This document shows, one piece after another, positions 10,580-40,495 of a stretch of 64,000 nucleotides of DNA; positions within the stretch are counted from its first letter, which is position 1, and the number at the start of each line of letters is the position of its first letter. The stretch is taken from assembly GCA_041671745.1 (NCBI GenBank), contig JBAZBC010000018.1:31905-95904 (forward strand), read 5' to 3'. The stretch is from Opitutaceae bacterium (lineage in GTDB: Bacteria; Verrucomicrobiota; Verrucomicrobiia; Opitutales; Opitutaceae). A model generated the notes under the pieces. It was not told the origin of the DNA. It saw only the letters and a list, made by a program, of their open reading frames with translations, and did not search any database. Both the position numbers and the translations under genes were made by a program.

Positions 10580-11365
10580 ATGAAATCACTGCCTTCGATT
10601 CCTTCCCTGGTCTGTTTTTGGGATTTTCAAGAACCGGCGGGTGCGCCGCGGGTAAGCCGCGGCGCCTGCGCTTATGCGTTGCGCGAAGCGGCGGGACCGG
10701 TCGCGCGAGTTGATGACGGGGTGTTCGGCCCGGCATCGGCGGAATTGAAGGCGGGACAGTGGTTCGAGATTCCACGCGCCGAATGTCCGGCGCTCGATCT
10801 TCATGGTCCCGAGGCGCAGGTCACGATCGTGGCTTGGTTGCGTCGTCATCGTAAGCGCGAGGTCCAGTGCGAGGCGGTCGCCGGCATGTGGAACGAGTCG
10901 CGCCGCCAGCGCCAATACGCGCTTTTTCTCGACCTGCGCATTCATCAGGCGGGGGATAACGTGGGTGGTCACGTCTCCGCGACGGGTGGCCCCACGCCCG
11001 GCTACCCGTGGTGCATGGACGCGGCGATCGGCGCGAGTTACCTGACCTATTTCGACTGGCACTGCGTCGCGTTTTCGTATGACGGGCAAACCGCCCGCGC
11101 CTACCTCGACGGCGAGTTGGACCATCGCGTGGGATTCAATCCCTACGCTTATTCCGGCGGTCTTTTTGACGCGGGACCGGCGGGTGCGGATTTCACCGTC
11201 GGCGCGGTGCATCGCGGTGGTGAGATGGGCAACTGGTTTTCCGGGAGGATTGGCGGGCTGGCGGTTTTTAACCGGGCTTTGTCAGACGCCGAGCAGCGCA
11301 CGCTTTGCTCGTTGTTGCCCGAGAGTCCCAAGCCCTCGCCTTCCAAGCCTCCTGTTTTGGTGTGA
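10580..11365 (+). CDS. LamG/concanavalin-A-like jelly-roll domain protein
   Basis: 'WHCVAFSYDGQTARAYLDG' and 'FSGRIGGLAVFNRALSDAE' are LamG hallmarks; no signal peptide evident. Confidence 0.75.
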   Translation: MKSLPSIPSLVCFWDFQEPAGAPRVSRGACAYALREAAGPVARVDDGVFGPASAELKAGQWFEIPRAECPALDLHGPEAQVTIVAWLRRHRKREVQCEAVAGMWNESRRQRQYALFLDLRIHQAGDNVGGHVSATGGPTPGYPWCMDAAIGASYLTYFDWHCVAFSYDGQTARAYLDGELDHRVGFNPYAYSGGLFDAGPAGADFTVGAVHRGGEMGNWFSGRIGGLAVFNRALSDAEQRTLCSLLPESPKPSPSKPPVLV

Positions 11366-11386
11366 GCAGGATGGTCCCGGAGTCGT

Positions 11387-12481
11387 TCAGGACTTTGGAG
11401 ATTTTGAGCGCTTTCGAGCTGCGGGAGATGGCGGGGCGGGTGACTGCTTGCGGAGTGTGAAGCCATCCACCCAATGCGGACGTATGAGCACTTCGCGGGG
11501 GACTGAGGGAAACCCGGTCTCCCCTCGGAGCAAGAGAGTGTGGAGAAGTTCGACCGCAGCCTCGCCCGAGGCATCGAGGTGTTGCGATAGACCGGCTGCA
11601 CCAACCGGTTCGCTGAAGTCACGATTAAGCAGGACGAGCCCGAGTTTTTCGGGCACCGAAAAGCCCGCGGCATTTAACCAGTGGAAAATATGTCCATGGT
11701 TGGTGATCACCGCGTCGGGTTTTCCCTTTCTGACCCAATCGAGCAGACTGTCCGGCTCCAGTATGGTGGGAAGGTGTGGTTGCAGAATGGTAAGTCCGGA
11801 ATCGGGCAAGAAATGCTCTTTGGAAATAGCTCCGAGCCATTCGTAGCGCAGCCGCTGCTCGGCGATCATGTGATTGATAAGTCCGATCCGACGATACCCT
11901 AGCTCACGTAGGCGGAGGCAGGCGATATGCATGGCTTGAAATGCATCACTGCCCACACGGTTGATCGGCAGCGACTGCGGCGGATGCCCGAGTCCCACGG
12001 CTGAATATCGGCTCCATTGGAGTTGCGCTATGAGTTCTTGGTTGAAGAGGGGCATCAATATCACGCCCCGGATGCCGCGGCTGTGCAGAAGCCGGTCCGG
12101 TTGGCGCTTTGACCCGAGGTCTCTCTGGAGGTGAATGATATCAAGATTATAACCGAAACGCGCTGAAGAGGCCTGCATGCCGGCGATAAAGCTGTTGAGC
12201 CACTGACTGTGGATCTTGGGATCCCAGCGGTCATCAAGCAGAGCGGCGATGTTGGCATAGGCGCGGTGCTTGCGATTCAGGTCACGACGCGCGACCAGTG
12301 CGGAGAGGATGGGGTCGGGTTTGTAGTGAAGGGACTTGGCCGCCTGCCGCACTTTTTCCTGGGTGGACGGGGTGATGCGCGGATCGTTTCGCAAGGCCAT
12401 CGAAACGGTGGCGGCCGTGACTCCGGCCACTTTGGCAATATCGGACTGAGTGGGGGAGCGCACAGGTTGATGCGTTTTCAT
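11387..12481 (-). CDS. LacI family transcriptional regulator
   Basis: 'TQSDIAKVAGVTAATVSMALRN' HTH; 'PDPILSAL' hinge; divergent from GH10. Confidence 0.9.
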   Translation of the reverse strand: MKTHQPVRSPTQSDIAKVAGVTAATVSMALRNDPRITPSTQEKVRQAAKSLHYKPDPILSALVARRDLNRKHRAYANIAALLDDRWDPKIHSQWLNSFIAGMQASSARFGYNLDIIHLQRDLGSKRQPDRLLHSRGIRGVILMPLFNQELIAQLQWSRYSAVGLGHPPQSLPINRVGSDAFQAMHIACLRLRELGYRRIGLINHMIAEQRLRYEWLGAISKEHFLPDSGLTILQPHLPTILEPDSLLDWVRKGKPDAVITNHGHIFHWLNAAGFSVPEKLGLVLLNRDFSEPVGAAGLSQHLDASGEAAVELLHTLLLRGETGFPSVPREVLIRPHWVDGFTLRKQSPAPPSPAARKRSKSPKS

Positions 12482-12497
12482 TTAATAGATTAAATGA
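12478..12497. promoter_or_regulatory. TCATTTAA-N4-TTAAATGA perfect inverted repeat overlapping the LacI start codon (candidate operator)
   Basis: 8-bp perfect arms with TAGA spacer; the CAT at 12479-12481 is the regulator's start codon. Confidence 0.5.
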
Positions 12498-12591
12498 GCG
12501 ATCCGTTGTGAGGCGGCAAGCCTCTGTGTCTGATCCCCTCAACCCCACAGCCCCGTTCACCGACCGGTAAGTCCCCTATCGTTTCTCGCTC

Positions 12592-13992
12592 ATGAGCCAG
12601 ACCTCTTCCACCTCCCAACATTTGCTCGCGCATTTTCTCAGGCGCGATCCACAGATCGAGTCGCGCATCGCGGCGGGAATTGAGACCCACCGGAAGGGGG
12701 ATGGTCGTCTGCGGTTTGTGGACGATACAGGCTCCCCGGTGTCCAACGTGCGGGTGAGCGTGCGGCAGATGCGCCATGATTTCCTGTTTGGAGCGAATAT
12801 TTTCCAACTCGGAGGTTTTGCCACGGGCCAGAAGAACCAAAGCTATGAGCAGGCGTTCTTGGAGTTGTTTAACACGGCGGTCGTGCCCTTTTACTGGTCC
12901 GATCTCGAGCCCGAGCAAGGCAAGCTGCGTTTTGATGCCGACAGTCCGCCGATCCACCGCCGGCCGCCTCCTGATTTTGTGCTCGATTTTTGCGACCGGC
13001 ATCAACTGGTGCCCAAAGGACATTGCCTGACCTGGCACCAGTGGCTGCCGACCTGGCTGAGTAATTCCCCGTCCGAGACGGATGCAGTGATGCGTGAGCG
13101 CATACGTTTGATCGGCGCGCGCTACGGCCATCGGATTTCGATTTGGGATGTCGTGAACGAGCCGATGGAGAAATACCTTTTTCCCAAGGTGAAGGTGTTT
13201 GCCGATGACTATGCTGAGGCTTCACTGGAAGAGACCGCCAAAGCCTTCCCGGAGGACACATCCCTGTTCGTCAACGAGGCCACCACGTTCTCCTGGCGCG
13301 AGTTTCAAGACGACACCACCGGCTTTCATCTGTTCCTCGAAAATCTCCGCCTGAAAGGCTGCAAGATCGATGGCATCGGCCTGCAGTATCATCTCTTTTT
13401 CTACAATGAGAACGGCCTGACCACGACGGTCGCGGACTTGGTGAAGAATCGTGATTTGTATCTGGACCCGGCCCGTCTGCTCGCGGTGCTGGATTTATAC
13501 GGCAAGCACGGGCTGCCGGTCCATATCTCCGAAATCACGCTGCCAACCTATCCTGATCTGGCCGACGCTGAACAGTTCCAAGCCGATTTGTTGCGCGAGC
13601 TTTACCGTCTTTGGTTCAGTCATCCCTCCGTGGAGGCCATCTACTGGTGGAATCTCAACGATGGAAATGCCAACGCCGAAGAGGGGAAGCTGCGTGGTGG
13701 TTTGCTGGATACACATCTGAACAAAAAGCCGTCCTACGAAACCCTGAACCGTTTGGTCCACGAGGAATGGACGACCGCATTCCAGCTGAACACGGACGCG
13801 GAGTGCAGCTTCCGAGGCTTTTACGGCGATTATGAAGTCGTCACCGAGTATGCCGGCCAGCGGATCGTGCATCAGGTCGGCCTGCATCGCGGGGCAGGGA
13901 ACGAATTTTGTCTGTCCGTCTCGCCCGCTCCCGAATGGGCCGCGTCACACGAATCCCCCAATACCCACACTACCCATGTCTCACTTAAATAA
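12592..13992 (+). CDS. GH10 endo-1,4-beta-xylanase-like hydrolase (no signal peptide)
   Basis: 'KGHCLTW', 'WDVVNEP' (acid/base Glu), 'DGIGLQYH', 'HISE' (nucleophile Glu). Confidence 0.85.
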   Translation: MSQTSSTSQHLLAHFLRRDPQIESRIAAGIETHRKGDGRLRFVDDTGSPVSNVRVSVRQMRHDFLFGANIFQLGGFATGQKNQSYEQAFLELFNTAVVPFYWSDLEPEQGKLRFDADSPPIHRRPPPDFVLDFCDRHQLVPKGHCLTWHQWLPTWLSNSPSETDAVMRERIRLIGARYGHRISIWDVVNEPMEKYLFPKVKVFADDYAEASLEETAKAFPEDTSLFVNEATTFSWREFQDDTTGFHLFLENLRLKGCKIDGIGLQYHLFFYNENGLTTTVADLVKNRDLYLDPARLLAVLDLYGKHGLPVHISEITLPTYPDLADAEQFQADLLRELYRLWFSHPSVEAIYWWNLNDGNANAEEGKLRGGLLDTHLNKKPSYETLNRLVHEEWTTAFQLNTDAECSFRGFYGDYEVVTEYAGQRIVHQVGLHRGAGNEFCLSVSPAPEWAASHESPNTHTTHVSLK

Positions 13993-14893
13993 GATCCTCC
14001 GCCGGGCGCTGCTGCCCGTTTTGACCGCGCTCTCGGTTTCCGCCGCTCACGCGTTTACAATCGATTTTAACACCGGCTACACGGACGGGGCCACCGTCAA
14101 CGCGGTCGATGATCCCAACGTAGTGGGGACGAGCACTTGGGCGACCGCGTTCCTGGCCGGGTCCACTGAGCCCAGTGCCTCTAGTGTTAATCCTGCCGGC
14201 GGCACGGGCCTTGCGATGCGCATAAGCTCCACCACGTCTTCTACCACCTCTGACAGAGCAGCGATAAATCTCGGGGCGGCGGGCGGCCCTGTGGCCACGA
14301 ACGAGATTGTCTTCACGGATCCAACCAAACTGGTTCAAGTGAAATTCGATCTCTCGTTGGCGTCGGGCTTCTCGGGAACCGGTGGAACCAATATCACCTA
14401 TGTTCGTATAGGGAGTGGATTCAATATGTTCAATTCTGGTAATTGGTTTGGCATCGGACTGGATACCGCCGGTCGTTTTGTTATCTCTACAAAGGCCGCG
14501 AGCACCGACACGGGCGCTGTATCGCGCTATGTGGCCAGCGCTTATAGCGCCTTTAACGCGGCCAACTCCGACTATGTGGATTTTGGCAGTTACGGTAGCT
14601 ATGTAACGGTCGACCTTAAATTCGATCCGGTTGCCAAAACCTACACCAGTCTCACGATCGGCGGTCAGGATCTTACCTCTTACGTGGGCGGTTGGTTTCT
14701 ACCTACCAACGGCACCGCCACTCCGACCTCTGAACTTGGCATCATGATGAATGCCGGCATTACCGCGACATTCGATATCGACAACATTGTTATACAAAAT
14801 GTCTCGAGCGTTCCCGAGCCGTCCACCTATGCCGCCCTGGTCGGCGTTGCCGCGCTCGGTTTTGTTATCGTTCGGCGCCGTTCCCGCCTTTGA
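13976..14893 (+). CDS. PEP-CTERM surface protein 1
   Basis: Signal peptide MSHLNKILRRALLPVLTALSVSAAHA; C-terminal VPEPSTYAALVGVAALGFVIVRRRSRL. Start moved to ATG 13976 by similarity with the next gene. Confidence 0.92.
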   Translation: MSHLNKILRRALLPVLTALSVSAAHAFTIDFNTGYTDGATVNAVDDPNVVGTSTWATAFLAGSTEPSASSVNPAGGTGLAMRISSTTSSTTSDRAAINLGAAGGPVATNEIVFTDPTKLVQVKFDLSLASGFSGTGGTNITYVRIGSGFNMFNSGNWFGIGLDTAGRFVISTKAASTDTGAVSRYVASAYSAFNAANSDYVDFGSYGSYVTVDLKFDPVAKTYTSLTIGGQDLTSYVGGWFLPTNGTATPTSELGIMMNAGITATFDIDNIVIQNVSSVPEPSTYAALVGVAALGFVIVRRRSRL

Positions 14894-14953
14894 TTCCTTA
14901 ACCCCCGGGCGACCCGGCGGCGTCACACGAAATTCCCCATACCCTATACTACC

Positions 14954-15811
14954 ATGCTCCATTTCAATCAGGTACTCCGGCGAGCGCTGCTGCCCGTTTT
15001 GACCGTGCTCGCCGGTTCCTCCGTTTACGCCCAATACGCCACTGGATTTGAGACCCCGACTTTTACGGCTGGCTCTACCATCAGCGGACTCGATGGCTGG
15101 GCCACCAGCTTTGGCGTGGCCGGCACCAAGCTGGTGTCCACCGCCAACCCTTATTCGGGAAGTCAGCACCTGCGTCTTACCGACAGCACAACCGGGGCTG
15201 AATCCATCATTAAGAACGTAGGGGCAATTAACGTTACCCAACCGTTCACCGTCAGTTTCGCTTTCGCAGTGAGCAACGTTAGCGATGGAACGGGTGCCCA
15301 GGCCCAGATCTTGTTTGGCACCGCCAACAGCACCGTTGGCAGCAATCCTTACTGGTTTAATGTGTTCTATGATGATTCGTCGGCGGACACATTGGCCAAT
15401 GGATCTCTATTTATCGGAACCAACTCCGCAAGCGGGCTTAGCGTTTCAAACATCAACTTGGGAGCGTTCACTACCTACGCCCCCATTGGTTCATATGTGA
15501 GTTTTTCCATTACAATCGATCCGACGACTTTTAAGTATACTTCGGTTACCATCACGGGTGCCACTTCCGGTTTGGTTGATAAAACTTCCGTGGTGCAGAC
15601 CGGTGGAAGTCTCGGAACCGTTCCCCACTTATCGACTGCAGCCTCGTCAGTCCCGACCGATTTTACGGTTCTCACGGGCGGGAGCGATACGCTAACGCTT
15701 GATTTTGATGCGGTTAGCTTCAGTCAAGTGCCCGAGCCGTCCACCTATGCCGCCCTAGCCGGGATAGTCTCGCTCGGTTTTGTTATCCGCCGTCGCCGTT
15801 GCCGTCGTTGA
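14954..15811 (+). CDS. PEP-CTERM surface protein 2
   Basis: Signal peptide MLHFNQVLRRALLPVLTVLAGSSVYA; C-terminal VPEPSTYAALAGIVSLGFVIRRRRCRR. Confidence 0.92.
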   Translation: MLHFNQVLRRALLPVLTVLAGSSVYAQYATGFETPTFTAGSTISGLDGWATSFGVAGTKLVSTANPYSGSQHLRLTDSTTGAESIIKNVGAINVTQPFTVSFAFAVSNVSDGTGAQAQILFGTANSTVGSNPYWFNVFYDDSSADTLANGSLFIGTNSASGLSVSNINLGAFTTYAPIGSYVSFSITIDPTTFKYTSVTITGATSGLVDKTSVVQTGGSLGTVPHLSTAASSVPTDFTVLTGGSDTLTLDFDAVSFSQVPEPSTYAALAGIVSLGFVIRRRRCRR

Positions 15812-15823
15812 TTCTTTGATAGG

Positions 15824-15847
15824 CAGCTCGCGGCCGCTCGCGAGCTG
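15824..15847. other. GC-rich hairpin between PEP-CTERM 2 and the prepilin-like gene
   Basis: CAGCTCGCG-gccgct-CGCGAGCTG, 9-bp perfect stem; no U-tract, so not called a terminator. Confidence 0.35.
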
Positions 15848-15908
15848 TGTCTCCCAAAGCCGTGCGTGCAGCACGGCGCTCCCACCCCTCTTGTCCGTGT
15901 TTACCCCA

Positions 15909-16571
15909 ATGAAAAAGACATCGGCCTTCACCCTTGTAGAATTACTCACCGTCATCGCCATCATCGGCATTCTGGCGGCCATATTGATTCCTGTCGTTTC
16001 CTCTGTGCGCAGCCGGGCTCGCGCGACCACGTGTTCTTCGAACATGAGACAGGTGGGCACGGCCATGTTGCTCTACAGCCAGGAGACCAAGCCACGCCAC
16101 TTCCCCTACGCCTACCTCCAGGAATTGCCGGGCGGGGGGATTGCACAGCCGTGGGCGTTTACACTCGCGCCTTATCTGGGCCTCGAAAATGCGATTGGTT
16201 GGAATCCGAAGTCCAGTGTGGCCGGTGTCCTCACGTGTCCTGAATGGACGTATGATTCCGCCGTCCGCACTTCGGCCTACGCTTATAATCCCAACATCTC
16301 TCCCAAGAACGGGTCGATCTACGGCAAGCCGATCTGGAATTACAGCGCCTTTATCGAGCGGCCCGCACGCCTGTTTCTCCTGGTGGAGATCGATATGCAG
16401 GCGGAGTTCTATTATCCGTCCATGAATGGCTACGACGTGAAGCGCCGGCATCCGAACAAGGGCGCGAATTTTGTTTTTGCCGACGGGCATGTGGAGACGG
16501 TCAACACCGCCGTTCCCTACGATCTTACCGGTGCAACCGGCGACCCGCGCTGGATCTATTTACTCAACTAA
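15909..16571 (+). CDS. Prepilin-type N-terminal cleavage/methylation domain protein (H-X9-DG/DUF1559-like)
   Basis: MKKTSAFTLVELLTVIAIIGILAAILIPVV type IV pilin leader; 'CSSNMRQVG'; C-terminal 'RHPNKGANFVFADGHVE'. Start set at ATG 15909. Confidence 0.9.
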   Translation: MKKTSAFTLVELLTVIAIIGILAAILIPVVSSVRSRARATTCSSNMRQVGTAMLLYSQETKPRHFPYAYLQELPGGGIAQPWAFTLAPYLGLENAIGWNPKSSVAGVLTCPEWTYDSAVRTSAYAYNPNISPKNGSIYGKPIWNYSAFIERPARLFLLVEIDMQAEFYYPSMNGYDVKRRHPNKGANFVFADGHVETVNTAVPYDLTGATGDPRWIYLLN

Positions 16572-16582
16572 CCGATTATCCC

Positions 16583-17215
16583 ATGCTCCCATCACCTTAT
16601 AATTCCTTCCGTATCGCGGCCCTTGCCTCCCTCTTGATGGTTGGTGCGCTCGCTCCTTCCTACGGACAAACTGCGCAGGCCCGTATCGACATCAGTAGCA
16701 CCGCGTCCGATCCGATTGATCTTATCATCGAGGAGGTCGGCAACGATGGGCGGGCCGATTTTGTTGCCGGAAACCGGCGAACGATCGTGGCGCATTTTCC
16801 CGCCACGACAACCTGGCAGGAGGGGTCGATCACCGTGAGTTCTGAAAAAGCCGGTCGTATCGTCCTTTTGCCGACGGGACCTTGGGTGCAGCTGAATGCG
16901 GAGACCAAATTGATGAACCCCGTGTTCATCGAATACGACAACTTCCAAGTGACGAGAACGTTGTTGGAAAACGGTAGCTTTGAGGAGGTCGGAACTCTGG
17001 ATCAGCCGAAGAACTGGTATAAATCGGATGTTCCCAAGAGCAATCCACCGCTGACTCCAGAAACCAGTGCGCGGGTCATCACGAAAGATGCGCCCGATGG
17101 TAAAAATTATATCCGGGTCTGGCACAATTCGCGGCTGGGCCAGACGGTTGTTATCGATGCCAAGGCGCCGGTGAAAATTACTTTCAGCTATCGCTTGGCG
17201 ACTACGGTACCTTAA
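16583..17215 (+). CDS. Secreted hypothetical protein with CBM4/9-like 'NGSFE' segment
   Basis: Signal-peptide-like N-terminus; 'LLENGSFEEVG....KNW' resembles the start of galactose-binding-like CBM folds; 11 bp after the prepilin gene. Confidence 0.55.
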   Translation: MLPSPYNSFRIAALASLLMVGALAPSYGQTAQARIDISSTASDPIDLIIEEVGNDGRADFVAGNRRTIVAHFPATTTWQEGSITVSSEKAGRIVLLPTGPWVQLNAETKLMNPVFIEYDNFQVTRTLLENGSFEEVGTLDQPKNWYKSDVPKSNPPLTPETSARVITKDAPDGKNYIRVWHNSRLGQTVVIDAKAPVKITFSYRLATTVP

Positions 17216-17410
17216 CGAAACAGTCCGCGGGGAGGTCCTCTTGGACGTGCACAGGCGGCCTCAATTCCGCAGACCTCCGCTCAATCCATTGCGCAGTCGA
17301 ACCGGAGCGGATGTGCAGGCTTTCGCAACCGGTCCATGTGCGGTCGTTCAGGTTGAACTCGAACGGGCGTTTTTCCGCGCCCATCCCGACTTGCCTCCTT
17401 TCTTTTCCCT

Positions 17411-18601
17411 ATGAAAATCGTCGACCTCAAGGTCCGCACCGTAGCCATTCCGCTGACATGTCAGCTTCGCCATAACACCGGTGTACACCCCGGTTATTTT
17501 CTCCGGACCATCCTGGAGCTGATCACCGACGAGGGCATCGTCGGCCTCGGTGAAGTCGGCGGCGGCGACCAGCGCGGCACCCTTCTGAAGCTCAAGCCCC
17601 GCATCGTCGGTCTCGACCCCTTCCACTTGGAGACGATCAAGCTCAAGGTGCTGCGCTCGATCTACTACATGTCGAACGCGCGACTCTATGCCGCGATCGA
17701 AATGGCGTGTCTGGACATCATCGGCAAAGCGATGAACCGCTCGCTGAGCGATCTCCTCGGGGGATCGGTGCGCGACGCGATTCCCATGATCGCCTACCTG
17801 TTCTGGCGGTATGATCGTCCGGACGGCAAGGATGACGAAAAGGCGGAGGATCTGGCCGACTGGTGCGTCGAACTTCACGAAACGCTGGGCGTCAATTCCA
17901 TGAAGTTGAAAGCCGGCGTGATGGACCCCGACGAGGAGGCCCGCGTGCTCGAGCTTTGCCGCGAGCGCCTTGGTCCTCGTTTCGGTCTGCGCATCGATCC
18001 CAATGGTGTCTGGTCGGTGCCCACGGCCGTGCGCATCGGCAAGCGTCTTGAGCCGATCGGCATCGAGTATTTCGAAGACCCTTCGTGGGGGCTCAACGGC
18101 AACGCCGAGGTCCGCAAACAAATCCGGATTCCGATCGCGACCAACATGTATCCGGCGCGCTTCGACGATCTGGCGCCCGCGATCCGCATGGGCTCGGTGG
18201 ACATCGTGCTCACCGACATTCACTACTGGGAGGGGCCGCGCGGGGTTAAGGATCTCGCGGCCGTGTGCCGCACGTTCAACCTCGGTGTGGCCATGCACTC
18301 GGGTGCGGAGTTCGGCATCGAGCTCGCCGCGATGCTGCACACCGCAAGCACCATCCCCGAGATGACCTTCGCCGGAGACGCCCACTACCACTATCTCACC
18401 GACGACATCATCGTAGGCGGGCTGATGAAATACAAAGACGGTGCCATCCCCGTGCCGAAGGGACCCGGCCTCGGTGTTCAACTCGACGAGGACAAGATGG
18501 CCAAATACGAGCGCGAGTTTGAGAAGCGTGGCGATTATTACGCGCGTTTCCACCAGGACCCGCGCCGACCGGAGTGGTATCCCATCGTCGGCGGCATCTG
18601 A
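17411..18601 (+). CDS. Enolase-superfamily acid-sugar dehydratase, glucarate dehydratase-like
   Basis: KLKAG (KxK), 'IDPNGVW', 'FEDP', 'IATNM' (D/E/N ligand pattern of the GlucD subgroup), 'MHS'. Confidence 0.82.
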   Translation: MKIVDLKVRTVAIPLTCQLRHNTGVHPGYFLRTILELITDEGIVGLGEVGGGDQRGTLLKLKPRIVGLDPFHLETIKLKVLRSIYYMSNARLYAAIEMACLDIIGKAMNRSLSDLLGGSVRDAIPMIAYLFWRYDRPDGKDDEKAEDLADWCVELHETLGVNSMKLKAGVMDPDEEARVLELCRERLGPRFGLRIDPNGVWSVPTAVRIGKRLEPIGIEYFEDPSWGLNGNAEVRKQIRIPIATNMYPARFDDLAPAIRMGSVDIVLTDIHYWEGPRGVKDLAAVCRTFNLGVAMHSGAEFGIELAAMLHTASTIPEMTFAGDAHYHYLTDDIIVGGLMKYKDGAIPVPKGPGLGVQLDEDKMAKYEREFEKRGDYYARFHQDPRRPEWYPIVGGI

Positions 18602-18658
18602 TGGCTGTGAATCTCCCCTCCGCGGTTCCTCGCAATAATATCCGCCCCTGTCCGCCTC

Positions 18659-21600
18659 ATGATGTCACGCAGCCCCGCCGCTTCGCTCCCCGGTTGGATT
18701 GACTGGCGATCGCGCGGGTGGCTCGCGGTTGCCCTCGCGATGATGGTCACATCATTGCGGGCGGAGTCGGTGCTGACCTTCGACACCGCCGGATATGTGG
18801 ACGGAGGCGGAGTGCTCGATGTTGCCGATGCGGTTGGCTCGGAAGTGTCGGGCGGCGTATGGACCGCAGTCTATGGCTCGCCGGGGACGGATTTGACAAC
18901 GCCGGCCGGCACCGGCGTGACCGGCCGGTCGCTGCGCGTGACCGATGCCAGTTCCGCGTCTGCGCGCGCCCTCTATCTCGATACTGCGGGCACTCTGCAG
19001 ACCGGGCAGCTTTTCCGCGTCGCCTTCACGTTCAAAGTCACGGGCGCGAGCGCGACCAGCGGCACCAGTCAGCTTACGATTCAGTTCGGCCGGGACTCCG
19101 CGTCGGGAACCACCAAGAACTGGCTCCAGTTTGAATGCAACGGCCCGAACGCGCGGGTTTATGTCGACGCAGGTTCCAATGGCAACCGCACCGCGGTGAA
19201 CATCGGCACTCTGACGGCCGGCAGCTGGATCACGATCGACATCACGATAAATCCGGCGACCAAGCGCTACGAGAAGGTGCTGTTCAACGGCGTGGACGCG
19301 AGCGCCGCGGTCAAGGCGGTGAACAACGGGCTCATTCCGTGGAAAGCCAGTTCGGGTGACACCGTTTTGCCAAACGAGCGACTGTGGATCACGGTCGGCA
19401 CCGACGACATTCTTACCCTCGATCTGGACAATGTCGTTCTGGATAATCCCGACCCCGGTGCGATGACCTTTGACACGGTGGAATACGTCAACGGTGCCAC
19501 CGTGATCGGTGTGGACGATTCCACTGTGCCCGGGGACGTGTGGACGCGGACGTCGGGTGTCGACGCAGACTATACCACGCCGTCAGGTGCGGGAGTCGCC
19601 GGAGATCGTGCGTTGCGCATAGTGGACGCCACCGCCTCGGCGGCGAAGATCGCGGCCATCGACGTGGCCGGTGCGTTCGACACCACGCGCAATATCGCGG
19701 TCTCTTTCGATCTTCGCCTTTCCGGTGCCAACGCGGTCAACGGGGTCCTGCAGGCCGCGCTGCGTCTGGGCGACCATGCGGGGACGGGGGGCATTTCCAA
19801 ATCATGGCTTCAGCTGGATTGCGCGGGGTCGAACCTGCGCCTGTATGTTGACACGACGGGGGAGGGGAATCGAACGCCTGTCGTGGTGGGAACGCTCGCG
19901 AGCGGCGTCTATCAACACGTGAGTGTTGTCATCAATCCCGTCACCAAGCGCGTGGAAAGTGTCGTGGTGGGCGGCGTCGACGTCACGCACCGTCTGCTCG
20001 CGATCAACGGCGGGCTGTTGCCTTGGAAATCATCCGCTGCCGATGCGATCACGCCGGGTCAGGTGCTGTGGCTGGCCACGGGAGTGACGGATCAAGTGAC
20101 GCTCGACTTGGACAACGTCCGCCTTAAGTCGACCTACGAACAGTGGACTTCGGCGGCTTCTGCGGAGTGGTTGCCCTACCTGAAGTCCGGCACCGATATG
20201 AAGGTCCAGGCGGGCACCGCGCTCGATCTCAGCAGCCTCTACGACCGCACCGAGGCGGGAATGAACGCCCGCGGCTTCGCGCATGTGGACCAGGATGGAC
20301 GGCTCGCGTTTGCCGACGGCTCGGCCTTCCGCCTGTTTTGCGCCGCCGAGTTTCTACCCGAGAGCCCGATGTCGGCGGGGACGCTCACCGACCAATCCAT
20401 CCAGGACTACGTGGACCAGATCGCGCGCGCCGGCTACAACGCCTATCGCCCGCATTTTCTCGACGTTTACCTGATGTCGGGATCCACGACTGATCGAGCA
20501 TGGAATACGACCCGCTTCACGCGCTGGCAAAAACTGGCGGCGAAGCTCCGTGCGAAGGGTATTTATCTCATGATGGACGCGACCACCTCGTGGAACTCGT
20601 TTTACGCCGAGTCGCCCAACGCCTTCTTCACCGAGGCGGCCAAGCTGAAGCGCCTCAAGGTAAAGCTCCTCTACGACCAGGACACGCGTGATCACTGGCG
20701 GCTCGCCGTCACCAATCTTTACACGACGCAGAATACAAACGTGCTTTTGCCTTACGGCGGCGTGGCGGCCAACACCGCCCTTCGGTATGATCCGCAGGTC
20801 GTCTACACCAACATGCGCAACGAGCCGTCGCTGAATTTCCAGCTCGCCACCGACGGCCTGCAGAATCCCGCGCTCTACGACGAGCCCGGCTTGGTTGCCG
20901 CCTGGCGCGTATGGTTGCAGGACCAGCAGGCGTATTACGCCACGCCGCAGGCTCTCAGCACCGCCTGGGGCGTGTCGCCCGCCTACACGAGTTTCGACGC
21001 GGTTCCGTTCCCCTACACGACGAACACGGGAGATCCCCGTTATCGGGACATGCGACGCTTCGAGGTGACCCTTGCGCAGGAGACCTACGCCTGGATGTTT
21101 CAAACGATCCGGCAGATCGGGGTGAAGTCCCTCTTTTCGGATTTCAACAACACCGGGGACCTCCCCAACAGCCTGATCCGCGACACCCTGGCGCTGGTGG
21201 ACAACCACACGTATCATGATCATGGATACGAAATCGCTTCGGAGAACCTCTACTGGACTCACATCAACACCAGCGCGATGGACGACGCCATCGGCATGTT
21301 TCGCGGCATGGCCGACACGCGCCAGACGGGGAAGCCTTTCACCATCACCGAATGGGGCCATGTTTATTGGAACCCCTACCGCTACGAGGGCGGACTCTAT
21401 TTCCCCGCCTACGCTTCCTTTCAAGACTGGTCGATGATCGCGCAACACGCCCAGCCCGTCATCATGTCCCCCGCGTATGCCGACCATTTTTTGGTCGGTC
21501 CCGATCCCATCGCCAAGGCGTCCGAATACATGGCGGCGTTCCTGTTCGCCCGCGGCGACGTTGCGACCGCGCAGGTGCGCAGCGAGATGGTCGTGGACGC

Positions 21601-23680
21601 GATCAACACACGCACCGAGGGCGATTCCGGCGGCGGGCTGGATTGGTGGGCTAAAGTATTGCCGTTCGTAACCGGTTTTTCTCTCCGGGTGGACTGGCCT
21701 GAGTCCATCTACGATGATTTCTCCGGTGCAAACCTCGCCGACGTGACCACTTGGAATGTCTCACTGGGCTCAAAGTCCGCGTTCTGGTCCACGGTGCTCA
21801 CGTCCGCTGCCAGCACGGCCACGCTGCAATCCGGACGCCTCGTGCTCACCGCCACCGGTTCCTCATATCCGTCCGCCGCGTTGCGCTCCCCCGCCGGGAC
21901 ACCACTGGATTTTTTCACTCAACCCCTGCAGTTCCGCGTTGCCGGACTGCAACTCTCCACCGATTCCGTGCCGGCCAATCAGCAGGTTCTCCGCTTTGGC
22001 CTGACCAACGGCACGGGGCTGGCCTACTCGGCCACGTCGGCCCTGATCGTGGAGATATTCGGCCATAATCTCGTGAAGGTCGGCTACAAAGTCGGCGCCT
22101 CGGCGGGGGCCGCCTACACTTACGTGGCGACGGTGAACGATCTGGGCACCGCGCCCGGCACGATCACCGGTTTCAGCTTTATTCCGCTGGCGGTGGATCT
22201 CAATGCAGCCTCCACCACCGGGGCGGCGTTTGACCCGACCTTCGATTTGGTGATCCACCTCTCGGGCACGGGCACCCAGCCGGCCTATCGCCACGTGACC
22301 GGACGCTGGAACTCCGTCGCCGGCTCGACCGCGCTCACCGCCGCCGCGTGGGGTGCCACCAATGCCAACACCGTTGTGATGGAAGCGCAAAAGGTGGATG
22401 GCGTCGTGAATACCAAGCAGGTGACGGTCTCGCTCGAGGATTTTACCCTCGGCAGCCGCCCGATCGGTCCCCGGGCCGAGCAGGCCACCGTGCACAAGCA
22501 GATCCCGTTTCCGGGCACCAAACCCACGTTCGCCACCGTGCTCGGCGAGTTGCGGACCGCAGGGCTGTTGTCGGCGTCAAACCAGACCGTCGCGCCCGTG
22601 TCCGAGTCCGGCTCCAATCTCTACACCGGGCGTTACCAGACCGACACGGGGCAGCTCTTCCTCGAGCCGGGCAAGCGACTCTTTCGCGTGATCACTCCGC
22701 GCAGCGAGGGTGTCACGATGCCCGTCATCCTGAGCAATGGCTCTTCTGCGCCGACCAGCGCGACGCTTGACAGCCTGCAGGTGACCAATCTTCCGGCCCC
22801 CGGCGTGCCCACGCCGCTCGGTGTAATGCTCACGTCGCTCGATCCAGCAGGGGCGACCACGCTTGCCGATGCCACGCGGATGTTGCTGGTGGTTTCGTCC
22901 GACGCGCTGAATTCGGCGCAGCGTTTCTCGGATTATCGCCGCCTCGGGCAGATCGACAGTGTCAATGGCGTCAAATACGCGGGCAGGGGAGGCCTGCCGA
23001 TTTTGCTGCGTCGCACCGCCGTCAATGTGCGCATCCGCACACTCAACGCCTCAGTCATGCAGGTGTATCCGCTCAACCACAACGGCGTGCGTCGCCCTGC
23101 GATTCCCACGACTTGGGAATTTGTTGACGGCCAGCCTTGGCTGGTCGCGAGCATCGACACCGGTGCGCTGGGCAACAGTCCGTTGAATGCGAACGGCCTC
23201 ACCGATCCGGCGGTGTTCTTCGAGATCGCGACAGCGACACCGGTGACGGGAGCGCTGCAAGCCTGGCGGGTGAAGTATTGGGGCACGCCGGTCGCGTCTG
23301 GGCTTTCGGCCGATTCGGCCGATGCCGACGGGGACGGCGTGGCCAACCTTCTCGAATATACCCTGGGCACCTCGCCGGTTTCGGCGGCCTCCGTCGCGCG
23401 CCCCGTTGTTGAGCGGGGGGGCATTGCAGGTTCCGAATATCTGACGCTGGCCTTCGCGCGGGATCGCGCCGTGACCGACGTCACGCTCACGGTCGAGGCG
23501 AGCTCCGATCTCTCCGCCGGAAGCTGGACGGTCATCGATCCCCTGTTGTCGGTCAACCAGGTGTCCGTCCAGGTCGGCGCGCCGGCTGCGGGCTTTGACA
23601 CCTACACGATCCGCGATGTCCAGCCGCTCTCCGCTTTTCCTCGCCGCTTCATGCGGCTCCGGGCCACCGCTTCACCGTGA
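18659..23680 (+). CDS. 1673-aa secreted modular clan GH-A glycoside hydrolase (2 tandem beta-rich N-domains, GH5/GH148-like barrel, inserted domain, verrucomicrobial C-terminal tail)
   Basis: Signal peptide; tandem repeats 18764-19447 and 19463-20131; 'AGYNAYRPHFLD', 'RNEP', 'DNHTYHDH', 'ITEWG'; tail 'DADGDGVANLLEYTLG...RRFMRLRA'. Confidence 0.75.
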   Translation: MMSRSPAASLPGWIDWRSRGWLAVALAMMVTSLRAESVLTFDTAGYVDGGGVLDVADAVGSEVSGGVWTAVYGSPGTDLTTPAGTGVTGRSLRVTDASSASARALYLDTAGTLQTGQLFRVAFTFKVTGASATSGTSQLTIQFGRDSASGTTKNWLQFECNGPNARVYVDAGSNGNRTAVNIGTLTAGSWITIDITINPATKRYEKVLFNGVDASAAVKAVNNGLIPWKASSGDTVLPNERLWITVGTDDILTLDLDNVVLDNPDPGAMTFDTVEYVNGATVIGVDDSTVPGDVWTRTSGVDADYTTPSGAGVAGDRALRIVDATASAAKIAAIDVAGAFDTTRNIAVSFDLRLSGANAVNGVLQAALRLGDHAGTGGISKSWLQLDCAGSNLRLYVDTTGEGNRTPVVVGTLASGVYQHVSVVINPVTKRVESVVVGGVDVTHRLLAINGGLLPWKSSAADAITPGQVLWLATGVTDQVTLDLDNVRLKSTYEQWTSAASAEWLPYLKSGTDMKVQAGTALDLSSLYDRTEAGMNARGFAHVDQDGRLAFADGSAFRLFCAAEFLPESPMSAGTLTDQSIQDYVDQIARAGYNAYRPHFLDVYLMSGSTTDRAWNTTRFTRWQKLAAKLRAKGIYLMMDATTSWNSFYAESPNAFFTEAAKLKRLKVKLLYDQDTRDHWRLAVTNLYTTQNTNVLLPYGGVAANTALRYDPQVVYTNMRNEPSLNFQLATDGLQNPALYDEPGLVAAWRVWLQDQQAYYATPQALSTAWGVSPAYTSFDAVPFPYTTNTGDPRYRDMRRFEVTLAQETYAWMFQTIRQIGVKSLFSDFNNTGDLPNSLIRDTLALVDNHTYHDHGYEIASENLYWTHINTSAMDDAIGMFRGMADTRQTGKPFTITEWGHVYWNPYRYEGGLYFPAYASFQDWSMIAQHAQPVIMSPAYADHFLVGPDPIAKASEYMAAFLFARGDVATAQVRSEMVVDAINTRTEGDSGGGLDWWAKVLPFVTGFSLRVDWPESIYDDFSGANLADVTTWNVSLGSKSAFWSTVLTSAASTATLQSGRLVLTATGSSYPSAALRSPAGTPLDFFTQPLQFRVAGLQLSTDSVPANQQVLRFGLTNGTGLAYSATSALIVEIFGHNLVKVGYKVGASAGAAYTYVATVNDLGTAPGTITGFSFIPLAVDLNAASTTGAAFDPTFDLVIHLSGTGTQPAYRHVTGRWNSVAGSTALTAAAWGATNANTVVMEAQKVDGVVNTKQVTVSLEDFTLGSRPIGPRAEQATVHKQIPFPGTKPTFATVLGELRTAGLLSASNQTVAPVSESGSNLYTGRYQTDTGQLFLEPGKRLFRVITPRSEGVTMPVILSNGSSAPTSATLDSLQVTNLPAPGVPTPLGVMLTSLDPAGATTLADATRMLLVVSSDALNSAQRFSDYRRLGQIDSVNGVKYAGRGGLPILLRRTAVNVRIRTLNASVMQVYPLNHNGVRRPAIPTTWEFVDGQPWLVASIDTGALGNSPLNANGLTDPAVFFEIATATPVTGALQAWRVKYWGTPVASGLSADSADADGDGVANLLEYTLGTSPVSAASVARPVVERGGIAGSEYLTLAFARDRAVTDVTLTVEASSDLSAGSWTVIDPLLSVNQVSVQVGAPAAGFDTYTIRDVQPLSAFPRRFMRLRATASP

Positions 23681-23703
23681 TGCGATATTTTATTTCAAAC
23701 CCC

Positions 23704-26442: not shown

Positions 26443-26463
26443 TCCTCCTTTTTTTCCAACGTC

Positions 26464-28527: not shown

Positions 28528-28558
28528 ACCCACGCCCGCCGGTTAACGAAAACACGCC

Positions 28559-29614
28559 ATGACAATCACACTCACTCAAGTCGCCAGGGAGGCCGGTGTC
28601 GCTTTGTCCACCGCGTCTTATGCCTTGCGGGGCAACCCGCTGATCAACGAACGCACCGCGCGGGTCGTGCGCGAGACCGCGAGCCGCCTGGGCTACCGGC
28701 CCAACGCGCAGGTTGCCGCGCTCATGACCCACATCCGCGCCGGCCGCGCCGTCCGCGAGGCCGAGCGCATCGCCTTTGTGCGGATCGACTCATTCGCGCC
28801 AGGCACGGAGCACGGGATGGCGGACGCGATCCTGGCGGCTGCGCGGCTGCGCGCCCGCGAGGCCGGCTATGGCATGGATGAATTCAATCTGGCCGATCCC
28901 GGCATGTCGCCGCGCCGGCTCGCCGCGGTCCTGCACGCGCGCGGCATCAGCGGCGTGTTGCTCTGCCCGTTGCCCGGCCGGGCGTCCCTCTCGCTGGACT
29001 GGAATTGGGACTGGTTCGCCACCGCTGTGATCGGCAACACCGCCTGCGATCCGGAGCTGCATCACGCGGGGCTGGACCATTACGCCGCGGTGCGGCTGGC
29101 CATGCGCAAGCTCCGAGAGTCGGGGGCGCGCACGATCTTCGGCTTGCTCGAAGGCGGCATCAACATCACGGCGAAGGAGGCGGTGGCGGCGGCCTTCGTC
29201 GAGCACCACCCGGAGCCCGCCCGCGCGCGCCGCTGGCTTGATCTGGGTCATGGTTGCGACACCGCGATGCGCCGCCGCCTGGACAAGCTGAGGCCCGACG
29301 CCGTGCTCACGACCTGGGCGCGGTGGAACGCGGCCTGCACCGCCGAAGGACCTTTGTCGTCGGGCGTGCGCGTGGCGCTGACCGACTGGCGGCCCAACAT
29401 CGCGGGGCTCCCCGGCGTGGATCATTGCGAGGCCGAGATCGCCGCCAGCGCGGTTGACCTCGTGGTGATGCAATTGCAGCGGAACCAACTCGGTCCGCCG
29501 GCGATGCCGCACATGCTCTCCTTTCCGGGCATCTGGCGCGAAGGGGTCGCGCGAGCGACGGCCACCGCGCCGGTCTCGACCGCATTGTGCGTCGGGCTGT
29601 CGTCGGCGGCTTGA
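28559..29614 (+). CDS. LacI family transcriptional regulator
   Basis: 'TLTQVAREAGVALSTASYALRG' HTH; 'YRPNAQVAALM' hinge. Confidence 0.88.
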   Translation: MTITLTQVAREAGVALSTASYALRGNPLINERTARVVRETASRLGYRPNAQVAALMTHIRAGRAVREAERIAFVRIDSFAPGTEHGMADAILAAARLRAREAGYGMDEFNLADPGMSPRRLAAVLHARGISGVLLCPLPGRASLSLDWNWDWFATAVIGNTACDPELHHAGLDHYAAVRLAMRKLRESGARTIFGLLEGGINITAKEAVAAAFVEHHPEPARARRWLDLGHGCDTAMRRRLDKLRPDAVLTTWARWNAACTAEGPLSSGVRVALTDWRPNIAGLPGVDHCEAEIAASAVDLVVMQLQRNQLGPPAMPHMLSFPGIWREGVARATATAPVSTALCVGLSSAA

Positions 29615-29638
29615 GTCCGACCGGCGGAGAAGGCGGGC

Positions 29639-38742: not shown

Positions 38743-38782
38743 CAGGGGAGCCTACACGTTAACCGGATTTGCGGAAAGCGTC

Positions 38783-40469: not shown

Positions 40470-40495
40470 ACCGGTTGCCACATCTTTTTTCACGC

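Follow-up and report, generated by a model that had tools for sequence, protein, structure and literature searches.

Why does one module of about 230 residues occur four times in a single sugar-degradation gene cluster of an Opitutaceae bacterium (Verrucomicrobiota), and what is its function there? One copy is found in each of two predicted surface-anchored proteins, PEP1 and PEP2, and two copies (R1 and R2) are carried by a giant glycosidase (Table 1). No fifth copy was found by a six-frame HMM scan of the window, i.e., the whole 64,000-nt stretch of DNA that was analysed. The four-copy module had been proposed in a first-pass annotation, and every peptide quoted in its support was found in place.

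Table 1. Genes and domains of the gene run, with positions in the window.
Feature	Position	Strand	Description
LacI gene, second	11387-12481	-	upstream of GH10 gene; PF00356
GH10 gene	12592-13992	+	PF00331, E 5e-30
PEP1	13976-14893	+	signal peptide 13976-14053, module 14054-14806, PEP-CTERM tail 14807-14890
PEP2	14954-15811	+	signal peptide, module 15032-15724, PEP-CTERM tail 15725-15808
Prepilin-type N-methylation/DUF1559 (H-X9-DG) gene	15909-16571	+	PF07963 and PF07596
210-aa secreted protein gene	16583-17215	+	signal peptide, 'ENGSFEE' motif
Giant enzyme, 1673 aa	18659-23680	+	GH42-like, R1 and R2 N-terminal
Giant, signal peptide	18659-18763	+
Giant, R1	18764-19447	+	residues 36-263
Giant, R2	19463-20131	+	residues 269-491
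Giant, GH42-like catalytic region	about 20138-21700	+
Giant, inserted beta-rich region	about 21701-22537	+
Giant, C-terminal beta domain	about 22538-23239	+
Giant, terminal domain, 146 aa	23240-23677	+	end FMRLRATASP
921-aa secreted protein	23677-26442	+	signal peptide; distantly paralogous to the giant over its catalytic and C-terminal domains
SASA-family carbohydrate esterase	26464-28527	+	PF03629, E 2e-19; order repeated in L025
LacI-family regulator	28559-29614	+	end of gene run; PF00356

Homology and Selective Constraint

The cores of the four copies, with signal peptides and PEP-CTERM tails trimmed off beforehand, were compared by BLASTP. R1 and R2 are the closest pair (E 8e-59 at 43% identity), followed by R1 and PEP2 (E 1e-13), R2 and PEP2 (E 3e-11), PEP1 and either repeat (E 2e-8 to 4e-8) and, finally, PEP1 and PEP2 (E 2e-4). 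Identity among PEP1, PEP2 and R1/R2 is just 24-31%, and none is the closest relative of another across these groups. An independent HMM, built from 39 stand-alone relatives of other organisms and containing no window sequence, recovered all four copies at Z = 1.8e9: PEP2 with an E-value of 5e-47, R2 with 3e-38, R1 with 2e-35 and PEP1 with 7e-30. The profile-profile comparison of the PEP passengers with the hydrolase repeats, set beforehand as the refuting test, revealed significant similarity as well (hhalign of GH-fused against stand-alone modules: E 1e-55, probability 100%). Judged by these alignments, the four copies are homologous. Furthermore, all four are under purifying selection, with dN/dS values of 0.19 (PEP1), 0.16 (PEP2), 0.11 (R1) and 0.13 (R2) against a relative of 94% identity.

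Fold and Conserved Residues

The AlphaFold model of R2 is all-beta, with a pLDDT of 92.2 and a pTM of 0.89. A Foldseek search with this model against the PDB returned the concanavalin-A (ConA)-like lectin/glucanase fold with a probability of 1.0 and E-values of 1e-7 to 1e-5. The best matches are the Hcn domain of NTNH/BoNT, calreticulin, VIP36/ERGIC-53, legume lectins and the lectin domains of sialidase and galactocerebrosidase, all at the superfamily level only (TM 0.45-0.58, 8-16% identity). The module is thus predicted to be a beta-sandwich jelly-roll of ConA-like fold, bearing out the lectin-like character suggested earlier. It also deserves to be called unnamed: no Pfam or NCBIfam model covers it, and no PDB sequence matches it.

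Conserved positions comprise W27, W115, Y8, Y150, Y164 and several Asp residues (D19, D158, D215, D217); W27, G103, W115 and D217 are invariant in the module alignments, which are collinear over their full length. The family signature reads F-[ED]-x3-Y ... D ... W ... G ... W ... G-x-Y-x7-D-P-x4-Y-T ... T-x-D-x-D. Such a set of aromatic and Asp residues would be in keeping with a binding domain that contains a metal site of structural function.

Sequences of this kind are compositionally biased, and a word-indexed search was swamped by unrelated candidates, so that a chance resemblance among secreted proteins rich in Ala, Gly, Ser and Thr had to be considered. It is ruled out by composition-adjusted BLASTP, with E-values to 1e-13, and by the independent profile, with 1e-35 at the 1.8e9 scale; the collinearity, the invariant residues and the confident fold prediction also speak against it.

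The Foldseek matches also include PL7, PL18, GH131 and Cip1, with E-values similar to those of the lectins, and R52, Q97 and Y150 are moderately conserved. The module could therefore be a ConA-fold enzyme, e.g., an endo-glycanase or polysaccharide lyase with a distant likeness to PL7, PL18, GH16 or GH131. This is very improbable. The residues usual in ConA-fold enzymes, either an acidic pair (of the ExDxxE type) or an Arg/Gln/His/Tyr set, are not conserved in the family: a conserved His is absent, Q97 is kept in only 61% of the sequences and R52 in 72%. Moreover, the 54 members scanned gave no Pfam lyase or hydrolase match, even a weak and consistent one, and tandem duplication at the N-terminus of an enzyme is typical of binding modules.

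The Giant Enzyme and Its Neighbours

The giant itself has no Pfam match at E <=0.01. Weak Pfam matches to GH42/GH5 were obtained for its orthologues and paralogues, and its PDB profile match is the GH42 beta-galactosidase 6y2k (E 0.007, segment after the NEP motif). Across the orthologues, which are 43-45% identical, R720-N721-E722 and E898-W899 are invariant; as in GH42 and clan GH-A generally, these would be the NEP acid/base and E-W nucleophile motifs. On the basis of the invariant motifs and weak matches, the giant is probably a GH42-like glycosidase of clan GH-A. The single module of these orthologues aligns to R2, and R1 has no counterpart in them. Compared with the shorter paralogues, the giant possesses two N-terminal modules, an insertion of ~280 aa and the 146-aa terminal domain in addition. 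One such paralogue, of 921 aa, is encoded directly downstream (25% identity, E 2e-16; C-terminal domain E 3e-5, BLASTP), its start overlapping the giant's stop by 4 nt.

The tails of PEP1 and PEP2 match PF07589 with 26.6 bits (cutoff 20.7) and 27.7 bits, respectively. For PEP1, gene callers working on the near-identical contig L002 use the start that corresponds to 13976, passing over the ATG further upstream (13832), and a signal peptide follows the chosen start directly. This start is overlapped by 17 nt by the stop of the GH10 gene, whose product has no evident signal peptide at its N-terminus. The idea holds that the module has two uses in one plus-strand run: as a stand-alone protein with signal peptide and PEP-CTERM tail, and at the N-terminus of an enzyme that bears a signal peptide. 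No exosortase gene was found within the window. Downstream of PEP2 lie the DUF1559 gene, whose product reads FTLVELLTVIAIIGILAAILIP ... FADGHVETV, and the gene of the 210-aa secreted protein, which has no Pfam, NCBIfam or PDB match.

Family Range and Recurrence in Other Loci

The family is rare, with 62 representatives in 1.84 billion proteins, and is hosted by Verrucomicrobiota and Phycisphaerales. About 47 of the 62 consist of signal peptide, module and PEP-CTERM tail; the remainder are fusions to GH42-like or GH10-like enzymes, a C25-like protease or an esterase. GH42-like enzymes (the giant, P0004, P0010, P0064) and the GH10-like P0003 carry the module at the N-terminus, the Peptidase_C25-like/fn3 proteins P0014 and P0041 carry it at the C-terminus, and in the alpha/beta-hydrolase P0057 it is internal. 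By these architectures, the module appears to behave like a mobile accessory domain.

Its linkage to glycosidases is not a one-off, since a 43%-identical orthologous locus is present in another Verrucomicrobiota MAG, and further lineages show it too. Of 12 independent contexts of stand-alone module genes, 10 have a LacI or GntR-PBP regulator next to the cassette, and 10 have glycosidases within ~10 kb, whose families vary (GH10, GH42-like, GH113, GH78, GH20, GH2). In seven, a prepilin-like DUF1559 gene is either the immediate neighbour or separated by a single gene, and a homologue of the 210-aa protein is nearby in four (identities of 38% in L003, E 6e-45; 37.5% in L011, E 1e-42; 30% in L025, E 5e-20). 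The earlier model of the gene run was right in linking module and enzyme, but left out these two conserved partners. In L014, a stand-alone module gene lies directly upstream of a module-less GH42-like paralogue (37% identity to the giant's catalytic region); in L025, which also repeats the gene order of the window, a 206-aa gene stands between the two.

These pairings bear on a possible docking role, in which the module would be a homotypic or heterotypic protein-protein domain in the manner of cohesin and dockerin, and anchored PEP1 and PEP2 would retain the unanchored giant via module-module or DUF1559 pilin-like contacts. The giant indeed has a signal peptide and no PEP-CTERM tail, while its neighbours carry anchors; oligomers formed by sheet extension are common among legume-type lectin folds, and the conserved prepilin-like gene points to a surface assembly of several proteins. 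However, since the GH42-like paralogues of L014 and L025 are module-less, module-module docking cannot be general; the low mutual identity of PEP1, PEP2 and R1/R2, which are not mutual closest relatives, would also be unusual for a matched docking pair. Such a role is considered unlikely.

Two contexts misfit a purely catabolic role: in L027, a tandem pair of stand-alone module genes is located in an exopolysaccharide (EPS) locus, beside Wzy_C, a priming transferase and several glycosyltransferases, and in L020, the divergent fused member P0057 lies among cell-envelope genes (glycosyltransferase/GlmS/GlmU). EPS loci are the classical setting of PEP-CTERM/exosortase (TIGR02595) systems. The module might thus bind a glycan that the cell makes itself, either exopolysaccharide or part of the envelope, the stand-alone proteins being matrix or EPS exosortase cargo and the module on enzymes a cell-retention domain. 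This explanation is doubtful, as the usual neighbours are catabolic-type regulators and glycosidases, not EPS synthesis genes, and the partner in the fused-versus-split relation is a glycosidase.

Proposed Role

The best reading, with a probability of about one half, is that the module forms a new, non-catalytic family of ConA-like fold that most likely binds polysaccharide. This is because of the homology and selective constraint of the copies, the confident model with its lectin-type matches, the mobile accessory-domain placement, the fused (giant) versus split (L025, L014) pairing with one enzyme type, the regulator and glycosidase contexts, and the lack of a conserved ConA-enzyme residue set. 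The module is a good candidate for a new carbohydrate-binding module (CBM), its novelty being judged against Pfam, NCBIfam and the PDB.

In such a polysaccharide-binding system, a LacI-type regulator would control a run of secreted hemicellulose-active proteins. PEP1 and PEP2, as deeply diverged copies, would be exported via their signal peptides, passed to the exosortase through their PEP-CTERM tails and, we infer, presented on the cell envelope. The tandem R1-R2 would direct the GH42-like glycosidase to the polymer and raise avidity in the fashion of CBMs, and PEP1 and PEP2, once anchored, would retain the polymer on the cell surface, like SusE/SusF-type proteins of Bacteroidota. This capture apparatus probably also includes the prepilin-like DUF1559 protein and the 210-aa secreted protein, which would cooperate with the module proteins. 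Both carbohydrate binding and surface display are thus putative properties of the module proteins.

Against this reading, protein-protein contact is another function of ConA-like domains, and enzymes occur among them too. The wide spread of glycosidase families fits a generic component of the apparatus equally well as a substrate-specific binder. The exopolysaccharide and envelope contexts and a window without its own exosortase gene likewise run counter to this reading.

Comparison with Known Systems

The module resembles the CBMs and lectin domains of the ConA superfamily (sialidase N-terminal lectin domains, the L-type lectins VIP36/ERGIC-53, the calreticulin globular domain and BoNT/NTNH Hcn) in its predicted two-sheet jelly-roll of ~220-250 residues, its tandem arrangement and its attachment to glycosidases. 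It differs in having its own signature, the likeness being one of superfamily only.

With PEP-CTERM cargo (TIGR02595, PF07589; PepA of Zoogloea, NF038120, NF038129), the stand-alone proteins share the order of signal peptide, passenger and C-terminal PEP motif, TM helix and Arg cluster. None of the curated PEP-CTERM family models covers the passenger domain: the best match, about 1.6e-10, is under the cutoffs, and weak sub-threshold matches to NF038120 and NF038129 span the last strands plus the tail. Unlike such cargo, the module also occurs tail-less in enzyme fusions, and its neighbours are mostly genes of catabolism, not of EPS synthesis.

A stand-in for SusD-like proteins, as first suggested, is tenable as a loose functional analogy but not as structural kinship: SusD, the lipoprotein partner of SusC, is alpha-helical and TPR-like, whereas the module is predicted to be a beta-sandwich. 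In this respect, it is closer to a CBM or to the SusE/SusF-type surface glycan-binding proteins (SGBPs) of Bacteroidota polysaccharide utilization loci. The latter are surface-targeted, non-catalytic stand-alone proteins in regulator-controlled glycosidase operons, often two per locus, as is predicted for PEP1 and PEP2. The SGBPs are lipidated, whereas PEP-CTERM/exosortase tails are used here; a SusC/TonB partner is absent, and the partner genes encode the prepilin-like DUF1559 and 210-aa secreted proteins.

Four Copies of One Module

One domain of ~230 residues occurs four times in the window (see the table). Two copies are the passengers of the stand-alone proteins PEP1 and PEP2, each built of a signal peptide, a passenger of ~230–250 aa and a PEP-CTERM tail. 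The other two, R1 and R2, lie on a secreted enzyme of unusual length, hereafter the giant. All peptides quoted in the first-pass annotation, which had proposed a single module in four copies, are found in the translations of PEP1, PEP2 and the giant, and BLASTP, HMM and hhalign comparisons bear the proposal out. With signal peptides and tails removed beforehand, BLASTP aligned R1 with R2 at 43% identity (E = 8e-59), R1 with PEP2 at E = 1e-13, R2 with PEP2 at E = 3e-11, PEP1 with R1 and R2 at E = 2e-8 to 4e-8, and PEP1 with PEP2 at E = 2e-4. An independent HMM, made from 39 stand-alone relatives of other organisms and excluding the window sequences, gave E-values between 7e-30 and 5e-47 for the four copies, scaled to 1.8e9 sequences. 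Enzyme-borne and stand-alone modules matched in hhalign with a probability of 100% (E = 1e-55); the kinship of the PEP passengers and the hydrolase repeats thus also holds between profiles. The fourfold occurrence is real and statistically solid, and chance likeness can practically be dismissed. A six-frame scan of the window found no fifth copy. A third copy within the giant (residues ~988–1294) was considered and rejected on present evidence, its hhalign match to the family not being significant.

Compared with the syntenic contig L001 (94% identical), the four copies have dN/dS values of 0.11–0.19. This purifying selection indicates that they are constrained sequences of expressed proteins. 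The dS values are strongly mosaic across 12592–26442: ~0.13–0.17 for PEP1, R1, R2 and the dehydratase gene, 0.27 for PEP2, 0.40–0.55 for the remainder of the giant and its 921-aa paralogue, 0.66 for the GH10 gene and 1.07 for the gene of a secreted 210-aa protein. Such a pattern suggests that recombination may have acted inside the cluster.

The neighboring PEP genes are not the recent source of R1 and R2, which share only 24–25% identity with them. The nearest relatives of R1 and R2 (33–39% identity) are the modules of the database proteins P0004, P0003 and P0010 and the stand-alone P0027. Because orthologues of the giant with 43–45% identity carry one module, R1 is a lineage-specific tandem duplicate.

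Table. Coordinates of the features discussed (other contigs are named in the second column).
Feature	Contig	Coordinates	Strand	Remarks
Laminin_G_3 protein	window	10580–11365
Laminin_G_3 protein	L018	3102–5621
Laminin_G_3 protein	L022	19710–20822
Laminin_G_3 protein	L025	1099–1968
GH10 gene	window	12592–13992	+	no evident signal peptide; stop overlaps PEP1 start by 17 nt
PEP1	window	13976–14893	+	305 aa
PEP1 signal peptide	window	13976–14053
PEP1 tail	window	14807–14890
PEP2	window	14954–15811	+	285 aa
PEP2 signal peptide	window	14954–15031
PEP2 tail	window	15725–15808
DUF1559 (H-X9-DG) gene	window	15909–16571
DUF1559 gene	L021	9278–9958
DUF1559 gene	L022	12633–13319
DUF1559 gene	L023	10921–11658
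DUF1559 gene	L024	10931–11737
DUF1559 gene	L025	3217–3876
DUF1559 gene	L026	11024–11662
210-aa family, secreted (200–210 aa)	window	16583–17215
210-aa family	L003	5039–5647
210-aa family	L011	4266–4895
210-aa family	L025	4898–5518
Giant ORF	window	18659–23680	+	1673 aa; signal peptide, then tandem R1, R2
R1	window	18764–19447	+	module copy on giant
R2	window	19463–20131	+	module copy on giant
Giant terminal domain	window	23240–23677		residues 1528–1673, 146 aa; DADGDGVANLLEYTLG ... FMRLRATASP; no database match
921-aa paralogue of giant	window	23677–26442	+	secreted, no module, 25% identity; 4-nt overlap with giant stop; no Pfam match
Paralogue of giant	window	52569–55007	-	secreted, no module, 34% identity
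ORFs without any Pfam match	window	36110–37402; 38742–40562	-
ORFs without any Pfam match	window	42591–43808; 44045–47584; 47603–48403	+
Two tandem modules	L027	174–2077

Sorting Signals of the Stand-Alone Copies

Both stand-alone proteins exceed the cutoff of PF07589 (26.6 bits for PEP1 and 27.7 bits for PEP2; cutoff 20.7), and their tails (VPEPSTYAAL...RRR) contain the PEP motif, a hydrophobic helix and a basic cluster. By inspection, the signal peptides are MSHLNKILRRALLPVLTALSVSAAHA, followed by F, and MLHFNQVLRRALLPVLTVLAGSSVYA, followed by Q. By tail and signal peptide, PEP1 and PEP2 are predicted PEP-CTERM cargo (PF07589 / TIGR02595). No exosortase (EpsH/Xrt) was detected among the scanned ORFs of the window.

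The two passengers are merely ~25–31% identical, unlike their ends: 16 of 26 residues are common to the signal peptides and 20 of 27 to the tails (VPEPSTYAAL...GFVI.RRR). This likeness may reflect either strong constraint from a common sorting machinery or gene conversion at the ends. The leader motif RRAL[LT]PV also occurs in the family members P0029 and P0054.

Predicted Fold and Family Membership

An AlphaFold model based on the four sequences was mediocre (pLDDT 66), while R2 modeled with a 54-sequence alignment reached a pLDDT of 92.2 and a pTM of 0.89, and is almost all beta. Searched against the PDB with Foldseek, the R2 model gave 189 matches (E ≤ 1e-3); those listed with the best scores all have the concanavalin-A-like lectin/glucanase fold (best E 9e-8, TM 0.45–0.58, identity 8–16%); the weaker model was concordant. 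They comprise the Hcn domains of NTNH/BoNT, the N-terminal domain of the phage esterase vb_24B_21, calreticulin, VIP36, ERGIC-53, legume lectins, the lectin domains of sialidase and galactocerebrosidase, PL7 and PL18 lyases, and Cip1. The predicted structure is a two-sheet curved beta-sandwich (jelly-roll), which places the module in the ConA-like superfamily. The lectin-like jelly roll suggested earlier is hence right at the level of the predicted fold, the module forming a family of its own.

Apart from the PEP tail, none of the four copies matches Pfam-A or NCBIfam at E ≤ 0.01, and no sequence membership was found in the named families of the ConA clan (Laminin_G_3, Lectin_legB, Sialidase N-terminal and DUF1080, among others). 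Scanning 54 members singly against Pfam at E ≤ 1 gave scattered noise and no consistent weak match, and for the 41 full-length stand-alone members PEP-CTERM families were matched only below threshold, through the tail and the final strands. The module corresponds to none of the CBM models in Pfam, the single-member matches to CBM_17_28 and CBM_4_9 at E ~0.1 being noise, and PDB sequence searches with the module profiles were empty. Judged by sequence, the module would represent a new family of a known fold with respect to Pfam-A, NCBIfam and PDB sequences, occurring as a CBM-like module and as putative exosortase-anchored cargo.

The conserved signature comprises (in R2 numbering) F3, E/D4, Y8, D19, W27, P44, G47, R52, G103, W115, G148, Y150, D158, P159, Y164, G171, D173, P187, P198, D215 and D217, of which W27, G103, W115 and D217 are invariant. 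That the module is itself an enzyme of the ConA fold is very unlikely, as no catalytic set (an acid pair or an Arg/Gln/His/Tyr group) is conserved in the alignment, although lyases of this fold are among its structural matches.

Distribution and Architectures

When 1.84 billion cluster representatives were searched exhaustively with HMMER, 62 family members emerged at E ≤ 1e-3, and 56 passed E ≤ 1e-10. Some 47 of these 62 are proteins of 240–335 aa that combine the module with a signal peptide and a PEP-CTERM tail. In the others, the module can be N-terminal, as in the giant's orthologues P0004, P0010 and P0064 (a single module, aligned to R2) and in the GH10-like P0003; C-terminal, as in the Peptidase_C25-like/Calx-beta/fn3 proteins P0014 and P0041; or internal, as in the alpha/beta-hydrolase P0057. 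In the GH42-like giant, its orthologues and P0003, it is a discrete contiguous module inside a carbohydrate-active enzyme, as a CBM is in CAZy. The dual use proposed earlier, as a stand-alone protein of the cell-anchored type and as an enzyme-borne domain in the same gene run, holds, given the PEP-CTERM tails and R1/R2 on the giant.

The members fall in clusters of 1–4 sequences, under source names such as "hypothetical protein" (Verrucomicrobiota bacterium JB024) and "PEP-CTERM sorting domain-containing protein" (a Phycisphaerales MAG). The window locus was detected in one groundwater metagenome run only, and in no RNA run. Further loci were sought with a hand-built degenerate DNA pattern (G-x-Y-[VIL]-x4-[TS]-[IV]-D-P-x-[TS]-x2-[YF]-T), which gave 13 metagenome matches with true members at just two loci, and from an alignment of the giant's orthologues. 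No such module or cassette turned up in literature searches that paired PEP-CTERM with CAZymes, lectins or Verrucomicrobia, or that looked for DUF1559 or H-X9-DG.

The Giant Enzyme

The giant itself has no Pfam match; weak matches to GH42 and GH5 come from its orthologues, P0004 passing the GH42 threshold (21.8 vs. 21 bits). The catalytic region (residues ~494–1014) and a C-terminal beta domain (1294–1527) have paralogues matching GH42 at threshold (24.5 and 32 bits). N721-E722 (RNEPS) and E898 (ITEWGH) are invariant in four orthologues, and the orthologue profile matched the GH42 beta-galactosidase 6y2k in the PDB (E = 0.007); sequence searches of the PDB with the part downstream of R2 and with the terminal domain were empty. 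The giant is likely a GH42-like glycosidase of clan GH-A. The GH42-matching paralogues are the reverse-strand one in the window and those on L014 (37% identity), L003 and L004; the 921-aa protein is a more distant paralogue.

P0014, P0024, P0037 and P0041 each have a homologue of the terminal domain (31–49% identity) directly preceding the module; in P0057 the homologue follows the module, and in P0053 it is close to the C-terminus. This unnamed domain hence travels with the module.

Gene Run and Recurring Neighborhoods

The four copies belong to a run on the forward strand that encodes the GH10 enzyme, PEP1, PEP2, the prepilin-like DUF1559 protein, the 210-aa protein, an enolase-superfamily dehydratase, the giant, its 921-aa paralogue, an SASA esterase and LacI, with intergenic gaps of -17 to 195 nt. 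Upstream, on the reverse strand, is another LacI gene. The GH10 product looks like a cytoplasmic xylo-oligosaccharide enzyme, whose translation would be coupled to that of a surface protein. A scan for promoters and terminators over 11300–30000 gave no more than expected by chance. Around this run, the window forms a CAZyme island, with three GH2 genes, GH10+CBM60, GH116, two DUF2961 genes and a raffinose-synthase-like gene; five sizeable ORFs of the island, one of 1179 aa, lack any Pfam match.

Stand-alone members were compared in 12 independent contexts: the window (with its close relatives L001 and L002), L003, L011, L014, L018 and L021–L027. A sugar regulator of the LacI or GntR/periplasmic-binding type adjoins the cassette in 10 of the 12, and glycosidases (GH10, GH42-like, GH113, GH78, GH20, GH2, ASD1-type) lie within ~10 kb in as many. 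Together with the fusions to GH42-like and GH10-like enzymes, this upholds the linkage of the module to glycoside hydrolases. Two family members stand in tandem or close together in five contexts (window, L003, L011, L014, L027).

A prepilin N-methylation/DUF1559 gene is adjacent to the module gene in six contexts and one gene away in a seventh (window, L021–L026). A locus of ~20 kb usually has no other such gene, which suggests a functional pair; by our rough estimate, ~0.1 adjacencies per locus would be expected by chance. The 210-aa family (30–38% identity across four lineages) accompanies stand-alone module genes in four contexts, being immediately downstream in L003 and L025 and separated by one gene in the window and L011. 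The protein has no Pfam, NCBIfam or PDB match. Its ENGSFEE motif is reminiscent of CBM4/9-type domains, and the L011 homologue has a weak CBM_4_9 match (E = 0.008). Near the cassette, four lineages also encode a Laminin_G_3 (ConA-like) protein; the one in the window has no detectable sequence relationship to the module family (hhalign probability 0.1%).

L003, from a Verrucomicrobiota MAG, encodes a giant orthologue of just 43% identity with one module, along with two stand-alone PEP-CTERM module genes, GH10-like, GH5 and GH42-like enzymes, a GDSL esterase and LacI. L025 repeats the window cassette (LacI, DUF1559, module, 206-aa protein, GH42-like, 696-aa protein, SASA), but its GH42-like enzyme lacks a module; in L014, two module genes lie immediately upstream of a GH42-like paralogue that also lacks one. 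Of the computational evidence that the module works with this glycosidase family, the contrast of fused (window, L003) and split (L025, L014) forms is the strongest. A role of the module as a docking scaffold is weakened by these module-free paralogues and is unlikely.

Two neighborhoods are exceptions to the catabolic contexts. In L027, the tandem modules lie beside Wzy_C, a Bac_transf priming transferase, GT4 glycosyltransferases and an acyltransferase, by gene content an exopolysaccharide-synthesis locus; the divergent fusion P0057 (L020) has an envelope-synthesis neighborhood. Both would fit a module that binds the exopolysaccharide of the cell itself, but the catabolic contexts speak against it, and we consider this improbable.

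We favor, at a probability of roughly 0.5, a candidate non-catalytic glycan-binding module. Stand-alone copies would reach the envelope by PEP-CTERM/exosortase sorting and be displayed there, and the module would be appended, here in tandem, to a secreted GH42-like enzyme, both forms serving one regulator-controlled hemicellulose-utilization cassette. A bolder reading, against which we put the odds, is that the anchored lectin-fold protein cooperates with the DUF1559 and 210-aa proteins in a putative substrate-inducible glycan-capture apparatus specific to Planctomycetota-Verrucomicrobiota, heading CAZyme operons under LacI/GntR control. Functionally it would be a counterpart of SusC/D-E/F, with the module as a new CBM family and a first role for DUF1559.

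Comparison with Known Systems

The Verrucomicrobiota and Planctomycetota, which rank among the major degraders of polysaccharides in soil, groundwater and the sea, lack, to our knowledge, the SusC/D machinery that accounts for glycan capture in Bacteroidota. The module is a concrete, testable candidate for how they hold polymers: small, predicted to fold well, surface-type as well as glycosidase-borne, and part of a conserved DUF1559 cassette. Should binding be demonstrated, the module would constitute a new CBM family. A class of PEP-CTERM cargo would then have its first function, and so, possibly, would the hugely expanded DUF1559 proteins, whose conserved pairing with the module is an additional lead.

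The earlier proposal of a stand-in for SusD-like proteins survives as a loose analogy, failing for structure and partner genes. SusD is an alpha-helical TPR-like lipoprotein with an adjacent SusC TonB-dependent transporter, whereas the module model is almost all beta and no SusC- or SusD-type Pfam matches occur among the scanned window ORFs. Where SusD has a lipobox cysteine, the leaders of PEP1 and PEP2 are followed by Phe or Gln. In structure and partner genes, the module proteins are not SusD-like. In its stand-alone form, the candidate resembles the beta-sandwich surface glycan-binding proteins of Bacteroidota (SusE/SusF), and its mode of working, given the predicted fold, may be likened to that of CBM and lectin domains.
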